This document shows positions 1,541 through 27,684 of a DNA stretch of 27,684 nt, in pieces. The translations under genes were made by a program, and so were the position numbers. Every line of letters starts with the position of its first letter. Positions within the stretch are counted from its first letter, which is position 1. The stretch is from a virus (Duplodnaviria; Heunggongvirae; Uroviricota; Caudoviricetes): IMG/VR virus record IMGVR_UViG_2562617057_000002; one strand, 5' to 3'. The notes beneath the pieces were generated by a model. It was not told where the DNA came from. It worked only from the letters and a program-made list of their open reading frames with translations, and made no database searches.

Positions 1541-1871
1541 AGCCTCACCTCCGCAAATAACGGATGGCGTAGTTTTACACTGAGAAATGAAAGGGATTTG
1601 AAAAGAAAAAAACGCAAAAGCGGGCGAAACGATATATACAGTAAGGAAAGCACTCTATCCAACAAACCACCCACAGTTAATCGGAATAAAAGCAGAGTGC
1701 TTATGAATGATCGCACGCCCGAAGGTTAGTATTTCTGCACAGCAATTTTGCAAAAAAGGCGATCATTCATAACGCAAACGTCTTTCAGTCACTCCGGGCT
1801 TTCCCATCATCGCAGACTGAAAGACTTTAACTTGAGCGGCAGCGGGAATCGAACCCGCATCATCAGCCTGT

Positions 1872-1905
<34 letters not shown>

Positions 1906-1908
1906 ATA

Positions 1909-1983
<75 letters not shown>

Positions 1984-1986
1984 CGC

Positions 1987-2063
1987 TGGCCCACCACCGA
2001 GGACTCGAACCTCGCACCGTCAACTTAGAAGGTTGATGCTCTATCCGGATGAGCTAGTGGTGG
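1987..2063 (-). tRNA. tRNA-Arg (anticodon UCU), argO/argU-like
   Basis: Reverse complement folds as a cloverleaf: acceptor CCACCAC/GTGGTGG, anticodon stem TCAAC/GTTGA with loop CTTCTAA (anticodon TCT), T-arm CGAGG-TTCGAGT-CCTCG, encoded CCA. Confidence 0.75.
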
Positions 2064-2064
2064 T

Positions 2065-2141
2065 TGGTGGCCCTTGCTGGACTTGAACCAGCGACCTGGC
2101 GATTATGAGTCGCTCGCTCTGACCAACTGAGCTAAAGGGCC
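2065..2141 (-). tRNA. ileZ: tRNA-Ile2 (anticodon CAU, lysidine-type; often annotated tRNA-Met), ileZ/ileX-like
   Basis: Reverse complement GGCCCTTTAGCTCAGTTGGTCAGAGCGAGCGACTCATAATCGCCAGGTCGCTGGTTCAAGTCCAGCAAGGGCCACCA is close to E. coli ileX as I recall it; anticodon loop CTCATAA. Confidence 0.8.
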
Positions 2142-6879: not shown

Positions 6880-7698
6880 TCACGGTTTGGGCTGGAAATT
6901 CTTATTCAGCGCTCTGCACTGCTCTTTGTCTTCTTCTTCATGGGCTTTAAATACAGAATAAGTATCAGGGTCAAAAAACGAGATAGATTCCACTTCCCTC
7001 TTGGCTACAAGTATCCGAAAGTCTTCAAGGCTAAGGCCGCCAAGACCTTCCGCTACAATTCCTTCTGACTGATAATGTCGGCGGTAGTTTGTTGTGATGT
7101 TTGTAGTTAACGTACCCTTATCCCGATACCCACTCAACAGCGGAAGAAGTTCAATATGGGTAAAATCGCCGTTTTCAAAACTTGGGCAGATAACAATTCC
7201 AACGTAAAATTTTCTGGATGAGAGTGTTATAATGACGGGAAATTGCCTGACTGCTGCTTCCATCAGGAAGCTCTCTTCTGGACTTGTGGAAACAATTCTT
7301 GCGATAGCATCCAACCTGCGATCCCCTTTCTCTGTTCTTTTTTTGCGCCGCCAACCGCAAAATGCAGCAAGAGCAACAGATGTCATTCCCCAGACTGCAG
7401 ATTTAAGATCCTTTATCGAATTTCCTCCATCAAAAGAGATAGGAAAAACTCTTTTCAGGGCATCAGGACCAAGATGAAAAAAATGCAGAATACCGTTAAT
7501 CAACCAGCGGTATACCCCAAGGAAACCAAGGATCGTACAAACAACCCACGCAACACAGACAAAAACAGCTCCCCAGGTTGCAACAAAAAAATAAGCGTCC
7601 CATCCCACAGAACGCTTATACCTATATCTTGTTTCCAAACAAAGAGTAACATAAACATAACCACTAATCAGTATGACAGCGATCAATAGCGTATTCAT
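6880..7698 (-). CDS. Hypothetical integral membrane protein (272 aa): ~4 N-terminal TM helices plus a ~150-aa C-terminal soluble domain
   Basis: Long ORF in an AT-rich segment; hydrophobic stretches at residues ~3-21, ~35-75, ~100-117 followed by RRKKRTEK (positive-inside); start adjoins the upstream small gene's stop; no family recognised. Confidence 0.6.
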   Translation of the reverse strand: MNTLLIAVILISGYVYVTLCLETRYRYKRSVGWDAYFFVATWGAVFVCVAWVVCTILGFLGVYRWLINGILHFFHLGPDALKRVFPISFDGGNSIKDLKSAVWGMTSVALAAFCGWRRKKRTEKGDRRLDAIARIVSTSPEESFLMEAAVRQFPVIITLSSRKFYVGIVICPSFENGDFTHIELLPLLSGYRDKGTLTTNITTNYRRHYQSEGIVAEGLGGLSLEDFRILVAKREVESISFFDPDTYSVFKAHEEEDKEQCRALNKNFQPKP

Positions 7699-7700
7699 TC

Positions 7701-7907
7701 TTACCCTGGCTTTTTGTTTTCCAATGACTCAAGCTTGTCCAGCTGTTCTTTGATAGCCTTTCTGACCTTGTCGTTCTCAAGGTTAACCATGATGAAACCA
7801 TCGTCGCTTACTTCGAACTTATCCTTGTTTTCTTTAAGAACTTTTGACAACCTGTTCGACGGTGTCTGTATGGTTCCATACCCTCTTATTGCATATGCGA
7901 GACTCAT
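7701..7907 (-). CDS. Hypothetical small soluble protein (68 aa from MSLAYAIRG), first gene of a two-gene cassette
   Basis: Strong Shine-Dalgarno GGAGGT 4 nt upstream of the ATG at 7907; Lys/Glu-rich C-terminus; stop (7701-7703) sits 2 nt before the downstream gene's ATG. Confidence 0.55.
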   Translation of the reverse strand: MSLAYAIRGYGTIQTPSNRLSKVLKENKDKFEVSDDGFIMVNLENDKVRKAIKEQLDKLESLENKKPG

Positions 7908-8076
7908 TCTTACCTCCCATCTTACCGTTATCACCGTGTAGTGACACTGTTACATCCATGTATAAATGCTTTGATACTATGGCTATACCATTAAAATAAG
8001 TTTACCGGAAGACTTTGATCAACTACTTTTCACACCAAATACACAAATAATGTGAAACACAACATAGAAATTGTCA

Positions 8077-8094
8077 AAACCGCCGGGTGGCGGG
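8077..8094 (-). terminator. Rho-independent terminator downstream of the hok gene
   Basis: Minus strand CCGCC-ACCC-GGCGG followed by TTTT; preceded within the 3' UTR by a perfect 9-bp hairpin (8125-8146, GGCGGGAGA/TCTCCCGCC). Confidence 0.5.
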
Positions 8095-8155
8095 TGCGTT
8101 GAGGATGCCTGACACATCAAAGGTGGCGGGAGATTACTCTCCCGCCTGGTCACTC

Positions 8156-8311
8156 TTACTCTCTAGATTCGTAGTCTACGAAGACAGCGACCTCCGTCTG
8201 GCCGGTTCGGATTCGTACCTCATAGAGGTCTTTCCTCGTTACCAGTGCCGTCACAATGACGGTTAAACAGATGACGATCAGGGCGATTAACATCGCCTTT
8301 TGCTGCTTCAT
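8156..8311 (-). CDS. hokD: Hok/Gef-family type I toxin (HokD/RelF-like, 51 aa)
   Basis: MKQQKAMLIALIVICLTVIVTALVTRKDLYEVRIRTGQTEVAVFVDYESRE: single TM helix plus conserved Hok C-terminal motif; the ORF track's 70-aa frame is an in-frame N-terminal extension. Confidence 0.8.
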   Translation of the reverse strand: MKQQKAMLIALIVICLTVIVTALVTRKDLYEVRIRTGQTEVAVFVDYESRE

Positions 8312-8569
8312 AGCCTGCTTCTCCTTGCCTTTCGGCACGTAAGAGGCTAACCTACATGTGTCTAGCATGAAATTGGCCTCAGATTAATGTTAAGCGTCTT
8401 GCAGGACGCGTAATGTTAACCGGGGCTTTTCTCTATCTGCCGTTGGTGTTCATGCCCGAGGCAGATAGCCTCAAGCACCCGCAGTCATTCTACTTAACTA
8501 AGATTTCCCTGCAAACCGTTTTTGTCCAGCACAGTAAATATCCAACTAAACCAATGGAGTTCGCTGTAT

Positions 8570-8749
8570 TTACCGCCAGTATTCAATGCACATGACCGCC
8601 ATGAACACCCCTAAAAAAAGGGCATTTATATATCCAAATATTAATATCAAAACATCAACTTTTTCCATATACCTTGCTGTGAAGATGATGGGCATACATG
8701 ATGCGAACAACCAGAACGCAACAAACAAAAACTGCAATGCGTTTTTCAT
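8570..8749 (-). CDS. Hypothetical small membrane protein (59 aa from MKNALQF, two predicted TM helices)
   Basis: AGGGGGAA Shine-Dalgarno 4 nt upstream of the ATG at 8749; very hydrophobic; AT-rich context next to hok. Confidence 0.35.
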   Translation of the reverse strand: MKNALQFLFVAFWLFASCMPIIFTARYMEKVDVLILIFGYINALFLGVFMAVMCIEYWR

Positions 8750-18394: not shown

Positions 18395-18628
18395 ATGAAA
18401 ATAGAAACTATCAGCTACATCAAGAAAAACGCAGCCTCACTGGACCTGGCGGAACCCATTCTTGTCACGCAGAATGGTGTTCCTGCATACGTAATTGAAT
18501 CCTATGAGCAGCAACAGGAACGCGAGAACGCTATTGCGTTACTGAAACTTCTCACTATTTCAGAAAACGACAAGTCTGAAGGTCGCGTGTTTTCAAAAGC
18601 ACAGTTGCTGGATAGCTTTAACAACTAA
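18395..18628 (+). CDS. Phd/YefM-family type II antitoxin
   Basis: 77 aa; AAGGA Shine-Dalgarno; Phd/YefM-like N-terminus; 8-nt gap to the toxin gene. Confidence 0.7.
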   Translation: MKIETISYIKKNAASLDLAEPILVTQNGVPAYVIESYEQQQERENAIALLKLLTISENDKSEGRVFSKAQLLDSFNN

Positions 18629-18636
18629 GGTTAACT

Positions 18637-18957
18637 ATGCAGGTTGAATACACACTTACCGCCAGAACAAGCCTTGAGCAAATTGCCGACCATCTCCGGA
18701 GTAACGACATTGACCCACGCCCTGTAATAGCAGAAATTCTTGAGCGATTTGAAACAAGAGTTACTGCATTCCCGTCCGGATGTCAGTTATGCCCGGAGTT
18801 GCTCAAGCTTGGCGTGGCTAAATACAGAGAGTGCAACACACCAGAAGGCTACAGAGTGCTGTACTCTGTCGAGGAGGATATTATCACTGCACACGTGATT
18901 CTTTCCCAACGTCAGGATATTAAACAGTTACTGTTCAGACGATTGATCAGAGTTTAG
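18637..18957 (+). CDS. ParE/RelE-superfamily type II toxin
   Basis: 106 aa; C-terminal GYRVLYSVEEDIITAHVILSQRQD matches the RelE/ParE fold signature; immediately downstream of the Phd-like gene. Confidence 0.7.
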   Translation: MQVEYTLTARTSLEQIADHLRSNDIDPRPVIAEILERFETRVTAFPSGCQLCPELLKLGVAKYRECNTPEGYRVLYSVEEDIITAHVILSQRQDIKQLLFRRLIRV

Positions 18958-19276
18958 CAATTACACATTTAGTAGCGCCCCTGTCCCCACCAGTTCAGGG
19001 GTTTTTGCTTTCTGATATCCGGGATATTGACAAAGCAACCTGCATTGTTGCAAGATGAACGCACTAGAAACAGTTAAGCGGTCATCCGCACCCGATAGCC
19101 TTGCGGCTTTTTTATGCCTGAAATACGGCACATCCGTACAAAGATCGGGTGGAGAGGCGTAATACAATACCCGTAAGGGGAATATGCCCGGAGCTTCTTA
19201 ACTGGCTCTAGTTGACACCCGATCACCAGCTACTAACTGGTAATCGCAGACTAAAACAGTTAAGGAGGCCACTAAA

Positions 19277-25281: not shown

Positions 25282-25331
25282 AACCAAGTGCATTTTGGAC
25301 ACGGTTTTTGAAAATATTAATGGAGGTGTTC

Positions 25332-25520
25332 ATGTATAAAATTACAGCCACTATTGAAAAGGAAGGTGGTTCTCCTGCCAGCTGGACAAGATACTCAAAG
25401 ACAAAACTAACGAAATCAGAATGCGAAAAAATGCTCTCAGGGGAAAAAGAAGCAGGCGCTTCCAGAGAGCAGAAAGTAAAACTGATAAATTTTAATTGCG
25501 AGAAACTTCAGTCCTCGTGA
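25332..25520 (+). CDS. Hypothetical small protein (62 aa from MYKITATIEKEGG)
   Basis: TGGAGGTG Shine-Dalgarno before the ATG at 25332. Confidence 0.45.
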   Translation: MYKITATIEKEGGSPASWTRYSKTKLTKSECEKMLSGEKEAGASREQKVKLINFNCEKLQSS

Positions 25521-26995: not shown

Positions 26996-27120
26996 CCAAA
27001 AAGACCGGAATACAGAAATTCGAGTAAATTTCGGGGAATTTCGGGGGAGACATTTGCAACTAATTGATTTCAAATGCAATTAAAAAAAGACCGAATACGA
27101 TTCCTGTATTCGGTCCAGGG
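26996..27120. repeat. att-arm-like repeat region downstream of int
   Basis: Direct repeats AAAAAGACCG(G)AATAC at 26999 and 27085; tandem ATTTCGGGG x2 at ~27029-27048; perfect 10-bp hairpin GACCGAATAC/GTATTCGGTC (27089-27115) with an adjacent A7 run. Confidence 0.4.
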
Positions 27121-27270
27121 AAATGGCTCTTGGGAGAGAGCCGTGCGCTAAAAGTTGGCATTAATGCAGGCTTAGTTGCCTTGCCCTTTAAGAATAGATG
27201 ACGACGCCAGGTTTTCCAGTTTGCGTGCAAAATGGTCAATAAAAAGCGTGGTGGTCATCAGCTGAAATGT

Positions 27271-27342: not shown

Positions 27343-27684
27343 TTAACAGAGTTTTTCAGCTCGTTCTATAAACGGTGCCAGACTCATTTTTTCGCCGGGA
27401 TTGTTAGGATCATCAATCTGAATCACCGAAATGGGTTGGGCATTGGTCTTCCCACTGGCAACTTCCTTTTGTGCGATATCGTTTAAAGGATACTGCACGA
27501 GGGTACTCGGATTAATAACATACAAAGCATTACCCGGTCGGCAAGTCAGCATCACCTCTTCGCGATTAAACGCCCATTTGTCTTTACCCACTTCAAAACG
27601 ACTGACGGTAATCACCTGCGGTGCAGCCAGCGCCGCTGCAGAACTGGTGAGTAACAGAAACGCCAGAATACTTTTTTTCATCAT
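27343..27684 (-). CDS. Secreted/periplasmic protein with Sec signal peptide (YebY/DUF2511-like by recollection); probable host flanking gene
   Basis: 113 aa; signal peptide [25 protein letters not shown] is at the last bases of the window; moderate GC unlike the adjacent AT-rich prophage arm. Confidence 0.5.

Follow-up and report, generated by a model that had tools for sequence, protein, structure and literature searches.

The minus strand of the window (the whole 27,684-nucleotide stretch of viral DNA analyzed here) very probably harbors, at positions 8076–8520, a complete type I hok/mok/sok cassette of the hokD/hokW subfamily, with RNA control of the R1/hokW type and a toxin that is probably attenuated by a Tyr residue at position 30 (Hok-Y30). 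All parts of such a cassette are present. The system is of an already known, ordinary type and is a close relative of the studied hokW-sokW pair; its one unusual feature, the Tyr30 (TAT) allele, is a minor curiosity. The control mechanism is most likely that of the R1 and hokW paradigms, as suggested by the anatomy of the locus and its predicted folding, and we infer the transcript ends, the abundance of Sok, and the toxicity of Hok at this locus.

The initial annotation had proposed a stand-alone hok toxin gene without relBE and had expected a Sok-type antisense RNA upstream of it. This interpretation stands, since a mok-type overlapping frame, an antisense promoter, and a strong Rfam match all occur here. 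One point has to be reversed: the absence of relBE, taken as an unusual state, is instead the complete and common form, and hokD of Escherichia coli K-12 is a truncated copy.

Organization of the Cassette

The features of the cassette are listed in Table 1. The toxin ORF matches the Pfam family HOK_GEF (PF01848, E = 7e-23, 80.4 bits versus a cut-off of 22) and PHROG 251, 'MokW-like host killing' (4.6e-31), and the identical RefSeq locus is annotated as a Hok/Gef family protein. As initially noted, it nearly matches HokD/RelF, with 46 of the 51 residues identical to the K-12 protein. The mok frame, which has its own Shine-Dalgarno sequence, runs in frame to the hok stop codon, and its product is identical to MokW of phage 933W at 66 of 70 positions. 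Phage 933W annotates mokW and hokW with a 57-nt offset, equal to that of mok and hok in the window.

Table 1. Predicted features of the hok/mok/sok cassette, listed from the 5′ end of the hok mRNA (positions in the window).
Feature	Position	Strand	Basis or remark
hok/mok mRNA promoter, TTTGCA-17 nt-TAGAAT	8487..8515	−	Promoter scan; −10 element ends 7 nt before the Rfam-defined mRNA 5′ end
Full-length hok mRNA, ~405 nt	8076..8480	−	5′ end, RF01794 position 1; 3′ end predicted
tac (translational activator), GGGUGCUUGAGG	8469..8480	−	mRNA 5′ end; pairs with fbi (full-length) or ucb (3′-truncated)
ucb, AAGCCCC	8422..8428	−	Alternative partner of tac; fold of 8480–8116 and Rfam consensus structure
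Sok antisense RNA, predicted 71 nt: 5′ tail, long hairpin, GGGGCUUUU tail	8360..8430	+	Homology
Sok-target hairpin	8343..8380	−	Holds mok GAGG (8380–8377) and AUG (8368–8366); forms in the 3′-truncated fold
mok ORF, 70 aa, N-terminally extended Hok; start ATG 8368	8156..8368	−	ORF list; in frame with hok
sok promoter, TTGCCT (−35, 8325–8330)-17 nt-TAACCT (−10, 8348–8353)	8325..8353	+	Homology to 933W sokW and CP53
hok toxin ORF, 51 aa; Shine-Dalgarno GGAG 8324–8321	8156..8311	−	Pfam, PHROG, RefSeq annotation
Codon 30, TAT (Tyr)	8222..8224	−	TGC (Cys) in relatives; TACG motif for TadA absent
Codon 47, TAC + G, TACG TadA editing motif	8170..8173	−	Kept in the family
3′-UTR hairpin, 9 bp, GUAA loop	8125..8146	−	Both folds; covariation in 10 loci
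fbi (fold-back inhibition), CCUCAACGCACCC	8092..8104	−	Pairs with tac at the mRNA 5′ end
Weak terminator-like hairpin, CCGCC-ACCC-GGCGG then UUUU	8076..8093	−	Sequence reading; specific to this allele

The Rfam search that had been suggested gave a strong match to RF01794 (113.4 bits versus a gathering score of 59), which covers the full model (1–157) at positions 8480–8306. This match lies on the hok-sense strand and ends at the hok AUG, indicating that the Rfam 'sok' model describes the hok mRNA leader rather than the antisense RNA. Compared with the model, the leader hairpin of the window has 16 additional nt inserted. A permissive Rfam scan of 7950–8700 gave only sub-threshold noise beyond RF01794. 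The promoter assigned to the hok/mok mRNA is the only sigma-70-like site called in 7950–8650.

Folding of the hok mRNA

The folding pathway of R1 hok mRNA has reportedly been established by the Gerdes laboratory, and the predicted folds and pair counts obtained here reproduce it in silico. The fold of the full-length mRNA (8480–8076) has a free energy of −167 kcal/mol (z = −8.4), and its 5′ end pairs with its 3′ end; this z-score and the Rfam score place the feature well beyond chance. The tac-fbi duplex, present in this minimum-free-energy fold, comprises 12 bp with one bulged C (ΔG −21.1). When the last 40 nt are removed (fold of 8480–8116), tac switches to ucb in silico and the Sok-target hairpin forms. 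This hairpin presents a 7-nt loop, CUAGACA (8365–8359), with the YUNR motif CUAG, is fully complementary to the 5′ part of Sok, and is conserved across 10 loci.

Shuffled-sequence controls did not discriminate for the short tac duplex, and tac pairing was instead judged by alignment-based pair counts. Ten hok mRNAs were aligned: six came from the window, 933W, CP53, and three close Cys30 alleles, and the other four from plasmid loci, among them R1-like ones. Across these loci, 89.9% of the cells in the named helices are paired, versus 38–52% when the partners are slid by 1–3 columns. Compensatory changes are found in 13 pairs, a number reached in none of 500 shuffles. For tac-fbi, 92% of the cells are paired and one pair shows a compensatory change from U-A to C-G; for tac-ucb, 97% are paired.

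The perfect 9-bp hairpin that had been noticed in the 3′ UTR is borne out: 8146–8138 pairs with 8133–8125 in both minimum-free-energy folds, and among the 10 loci compensatory changes affect all but two of the nine pairs. The terminator placed at 8077–8094 by the same reading fares less well. An inverted repeat followed by TTTT does exist (8093–8076) and overlaps fbi by 2 nt, but it is short, and a scan of 7950–8650 called no terminator-like site; we therefore do not endorse it as a strong terminator. The MAFFT alignment shows that the relatives carry a stronger one at the same place, AACCCGC-TTCG-GCGGGTT then T5. Since the weak terminator of the window is unlike theirs, the true 3′ end, and hence the processing step, may differ.

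The Sok Antisense Gene

The 71-nt sokW annotated in phage 933W maps to the predicted Sok RNA with 63 of 71 positions identical, and the corresponding sequence of strain CP53 with 70 of 71. The antisense RNA thus lies upstream of hok, within the stretch where the initial annotation had looked for it. Its predicted fold has a free energy of −25.9 kcal/mol (z = −3.4), and from its position the RNA would span both the Shine-Dalgarno sequence and the AUG of mok.

The sok promoter was placed by homology because a generic promoter scan of 7950–8650 did not call it; the scan misses it since its −10 element matches the consensus at only three of six positions. Its sequence is the same in 933W sokW and in the hokD-type locus of strain CP53, and in distant plasmid hok loci the sok promoter is placed and spaced alike, its −10 element reading TAnnCT. 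In the window, the −35 element shares bases with the sequence complementary to the hok Shine-Dalgarno region. Takada et al. reported that mutating the sokW −10 element abolished antitoxin activity, and their primer YO-421 replaces the complement of TAACCT (PMC8621323).

Proposed Control Mechanism

By analogy with the R1 and hokW paradigms, a constitutive promoter would drive a stable mRNA of about 400 nt. In this transcript, pairing of the 5′ tac with the 3′ fbi would keep the mok and hok ribosome-binding sites closed and make Sok binding poor. Slow 3′ trimming would then remove fbi, whereupon tac would pair with ucb and the hairpin holding the mok Shine-Dalgarno sequence and AUG would form. 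An abundant but unstable 71-nt Sok RNA from the opposite strand would pair with this mok-start hairpin and block mok translation, to which hok translation is presumed to be coupled, and the duplex would be marked for RNase III. Once Sok synthesis stops, upon loss or induction of the prophage, Hok would be made and would insert into the inner membrane. At this locus, the inserted protein would probably be an attenuated toxin, its Cys30 being replaced by a non-editable Tyr.

Relationship to Known hok Loci

The closest characterized relative is the hokW-mokW-sokW locus (Stx2 phages 933W/Sp5, VT2-Sakai), with 93.8% DNA identity over the cassette and a shared architecture throughout. Both loci are carried by lambdoid prophages, and they match exactly in the sok promoter and in the hok Shine-Dalgarno region. 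They differ in codon 30 (TGC, Cys, in hokW versus TAT, Tyr, in the window), in the C-terminus (...SEK versus ...SRE), in eight substitutions within the Sok/mok-start region, and in the sequence 3′ of fbi. Their positions also differ: the 933W cassette lies near the right end of the phage, whereas that of the window lies between the replication genes and a Q-like gene. The hokW-sokW pair has been shown experimentally to be a type I toxin–antitoxin pair, in which HokW is located at the inner membrane and halts growth, and sokW, expressed from its own promoter, counteracts it with partial help from RNase III and Hfq (PMC8621323). After mitomycin C treatment, sokW RNA is lost in a RecA-dependent manner and HokW is made; with hokW-sokW, growth arrest occurred about 40 min earlier and the yield of Sp5 phage doubled (PMC8621323).

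The hok/sok (parB) locus of R1 and the loci of IncF/IncHI plasmids share with the window the order tac, ucb, Sok target, mok, hok, 3′ hairpin, and fbi, as well as the placement of the sok promoter, and tac-fbi and the hairpins are kept via compensatory changes. However, DNA similarity to these loci is detectable only across some 80 nt (78–82%) that surround the Sok promoter and the start of mok. In R1-like loci, mok is out of frame with hok (97-nt offset), whereas mok of the window is in frame.

With hokD (relF) of the K-12 Qin prophage, the window shares the Hok protein (46/51), the hok Shine-Dalgarno sequence, the ORF, the 3′-UTR hairpin, and fbi; in K-12, however, relBE stands in place of the promoter, tac, ucb, the mok start, and sok. 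Homology between the two begins only at the hok Shine-Dalgarno sequence, indicating that K-12 hokD is 5′-truncated. The relBE-hokD (relBEF) arrangement, with relB and relE directly upstream of hok, does not occur in the window, and the K-12 relE sequence gives no alignment with it. As initially reported, no RelB/RelE-like ORF lies upstream of hok, be it in the ORF list, in the Pfam search, or in the PGAP annotation of the locus of strain CFSAN029787, whose hok region is 100% identical to that of the window; there, PGAP annotates only hypothetical, DUF7167, and frameshifted genes upstream.

The possibility that the window holds a decayed or unregulated remnant like K-12 hokD, one now devoid of a promoter, mok, and sok of its own, is suggested by the 90% identity of its protein to K-12 HokD, whose locus is truncated, and by the weak, remodeled terminator. 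This is highly improbable. The alignment to hokD/relF and hok/sok loci that the initial annotation had called for shows that the full set of elements, i.e., the promoter, tac, ucb, mok, the Sok promoter, the Sok hairpin, and fbi, aligns base for base with the complete loci, and the upstream homology missing from K-12 exists in the window. The remnant reading was rejected because all 5′ elements are present. The locus is instead a clean example showing that K-12 'hokD' is a truncated derivative of the complete cassette.

The distribution of the cassette was assessed with a 431-nt query (8090–8520) in 5426 complete E. coli genomes. It matched 4711 of them, and in 4017 (~74%) at least 80% of the cassette was covered at one place; related loci number two per genome in the median and nine at most. 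Since about 74% of the genomes carry the relBE-less cassette, and since its upstream part was replaced by relBE in K-12, the relBE-less cassette is the complete, usual form. As a system, it offers nothing new: roughly three out of four complete E. coli genomes carry complete hokD/hokW-type cassettes, and one of these, hokW-sokW, has been characterized. The locus also exemplifies that annotation pipelines call only the toxin ORF and leave out mok, Sok, and the mRNA elements. The cassette behaves as a mosaic unit: homology to other loci ends just 3′ of fbi and, in one context, also just 5′ of the promoter near 8525.

Codon 30, Codon 47, and Predicted Toxin Strength

The near-universal Cys of Hok proteins at logo position 31 (Cys30 here), either hard-coded or encoded as an editable TAC-G, is absent from the window, where codon 30 reads TAT-G. 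The equivalent Cys is hard-coded in 92% of Hok sequences (preprint 10.1101/2025.08.07.668861). Codon 30 is TGC in 933W, CP53, K-12, and plasmid relatives and also in alleles with an otherwise identical 70-aa product. Since the nearest of these alleles, compared by MAFFT alignment (indels present), have TGC, the TAT codon represents a change of two bases in tandem (8223 and 8222).

TACG is the motif for editing by TadA, through which the Tyr TAC of HokB within TACG is edited to Cys (PMC5630033), and Hok position 46/47 is occupied by either Cys or an editable TAC-G Tyr (PMC5630033; 10.1101/2025.08.07.668861). The window reads TAC-GAA at codon 47 (8173–8168), and TACG was found there in all seven loci compared. 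hokB resembles the window in its Tyr at the position equivalent to 30 and in the family-wide Cys/Tyr pair at 29/30 and 46/47. However, it combines an editable TAC-G Tyr with a hard-coded Cys46, whereas the window combines a non-editable TAT-G codon 30 with an editable TAC-G codon 47; thus, no periplasmic Cys is hard-coded in the window. A second TACG motif (8214–8217, minus strand) lies out of frame right after codon 30, in GAG-GTA-CGA; editing of its A would be synonymous (GTA to GTG, Val), and 933W hard-codes GTG there.

The high toxicity of edited HokB requires Cys29 and Cys46, with disulfide formation in vivo, and an engineered non-editable TAT HokB shows only mild toxicity (PMC12214031; preprint 10.1101/2025.08.07.668861). 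Codon 30 of the window, being TAT, is not editable by TadA, so a Cys30-Cys47 disulfide could not form; on the strength of this disulfide–toxicity relationship, which was observed in HokB and not in a HokD/W-type protein, Hok-Y30 is probably attenuated. The C30Y change may even abolish toxicity outright rather than just lower it. The FASTBAC-Seq study of R1 hok leaves the cysteines unmentioned (PMC9841398) and thus holds no mutational data for Cys31.

At least 111 contigs encode the exact Tyr30 Hok protein, a further 51 encode its 70-aa form, and the allele is present in 6 of the 5426 complete E. coli genomes. Identical DNA is found in several different prophage contexts and, in two strains, at two chromosomal sites, namely at ttcA (CFSAN029787) and beside yebY (VL40, as in the window). 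Other sporadic replacements of Cys30 among close homologs are Gly, Trp, and, in a relBE-linked hokD, Tyr encoded by TAC, a pattern that fits occasional escape from toxicity.

Such losses would also be expected if the toxin had been disarmed altogether. According to this explanation, the RNA machinery remains intact whereas Hok-Y30 lacks toxicity, and the cassette persists neutrally or serves mainly as a source of Sok that cross-neutralizes the other hokD/W-type mRNAs of the same genome (anti-addiction). The strong preference for Cys at the position equivalent to Cys30 agrees with it, and suitable targets would be at hand, given the multiple related loci per genome (median two, up to nine) and a Sok region identical to that of a hokD-type locus at 70 of 71 positions. 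Yet both unedited HokB (Tyr29 + Cys46) and the engineered TAT form still slow growth (PMC12214031). Moreover, the identical allele occurs in several prophage contexts and on at least 111 contigs with its ORF and regulatory elements free of further decay, and we regard complete disarmament as unlikely, an attenuated toxin being the preferred reading.

A similarly improbable reading is that the Tyr30 (TAT) allele keeps a HokD/W-type toxin, devoid of any hard-coded periplasmic cysteine, naturally 'locked' in a state of low toxicity. In that case, the sole Cys that could be gained would be at position 47, by TadA editing of A8172, and the edited protein would enter a state like that of unedited HokB (Tyr29 + Cys46), with its dimer/pore behavior, rather than the highly toxic disulfide form. 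If selected and not accidental, the allele would be the natural equivalent of the hokB mutant that was engineered to be non-editable, and it would depart from the reported rule by which this Tyr is 'never TAT'. The Cys30-to-Tyr (TAT) change provides a natural experiment on the link among TadA editing, disulfide formation, and Hok toxicity, which so far has been studied only with engineered hokB.

Prophage Context and Possible Role

Within an E. coli lambdoid prophage, the cassette occupies the early-right region. The hok gene is co-oriented with the early-right operon, in the order cro-like gene, replication genes, hok, Q-like gene, tRNAs, and lysis genes, and Sok is antisense to it. Given this co-orientation, read-through upon induction could occlude the sok promoter.

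Beyond the integrase end, immediately outside the prophage and beside yebY, Rfam matches to SraC/RyeA (179 bits) and SdsR/RyeB (118 bits) are found at 27078–27222 (both strands) and 27343–27684 (minus strand), indicating that the prophage occupies the ryeA/ryeB-yebY site. The CFSAN029787 prophage with the identical hok region lies at ttcA, the Rac site. In that relative, IS2 splits a DUF977 gene (7067–8295 in L001, corresponding to about 10306–11534 in the window by coordinate conversion only), RecE is present in truncated form, and a frameshift affects another early gene; such prophages are thus at least partly degraded.

These observations bear on whether the cassette acts mainly as a helper of lysis and phage release upon induction rather than as a prophage-stabilizing or phage-exclusion module. 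That role was proposed for hokW-sokW, given the earlier arrest and the doubled Sp5 yield described above, and the RecA-dependent disappearance of sokW RNA after mitomycin C is in line with it, as is the orientation of hok, with which read-through could occlude the sok promoter. However, an attenuated Y30 toxin would aid lysis less, the 933W cassette lies in another part of the phage genome, and the IS2 insertion and pseudogenes in the relatives imply that this prophage may not be inducible. For the locus of the window, a role mainly as such a helper is somewhat doubtful.

Neighboring Genes and Other Toxin–Antitoxin Modules

The DNA upstream of the cassette is AT-rich, as had been described, with a GC content of 0.32–0.38 over 8500–8875 versus 0.48–0.53 within the cassette, and the small hydrophobic ORF reported there was recovered at 8788/8749–8570 (minus strand). 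The upstream 72-aa ORF had no Pfam match. The very hydrophobic 59-aa ORF (MKNALQFLFVAFWLF..., 8570–8749, minus strand), directly upstream of the hok promoter, had no Pfam or PHROG match and is absent from the PGAP annotation; its exact sequence occurs on at least 1000 contigs, with point variants only. It may be a real small membrane protein often found beside hokD-type cassettes. Just downstream of hok (6880–7907, minus strand) are two genes, one for a 68-aa product (PHROG 9843) and the other for a 272-aa product that bears membrane helices at its N-terminus (PHROG 3630). Both accompany the Tyr30 hok in all seven contexts examined, whereas Cys30 relatives have other genes there.

Two further toxin–antitoxin modules are present in the window. 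At 18395–18957 (plus strand), a Phd/YefM antitoxin gene (77 aa; PF02604, 4e-07) is followed by a ParE/RelE-family toxin gene (106 aa; PF05016, 1e-07); this type II pair is annotated alike in the near-identical VL40 prophage. A RelE-superfamily module thus exists about 10 kb from hok and does not adjoin it. A match to Rfam sRNA-Xcc1 at 19143–19232 (plus strand; 67 bits versus a gathering score of 53) follows closely downstream of the ParE-like toxin gene and precedes an ORF for a Rha-like regulator. The third module lies near the excisionase and integrase genes, where Rfam RalA (204 bits), which acts as antitoxin RNA in the ralR/ralA type I system, is antisense to a RalR-like DUF1187 ORF of 63–70 aa (PF06688, ~1e-35), at 25308–25520 (plus strand) and 25338–25516 (minus strand).

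Finally, four tRNA genes (1835–2141, minus strand) separate the Q-like antiterminator gene from the holin gene. The CFSAN029787 relative annotates this cluster as Ile, Arg, Thr, and Val, and such clusters are typical of lambdoid and Stx-type prophages.
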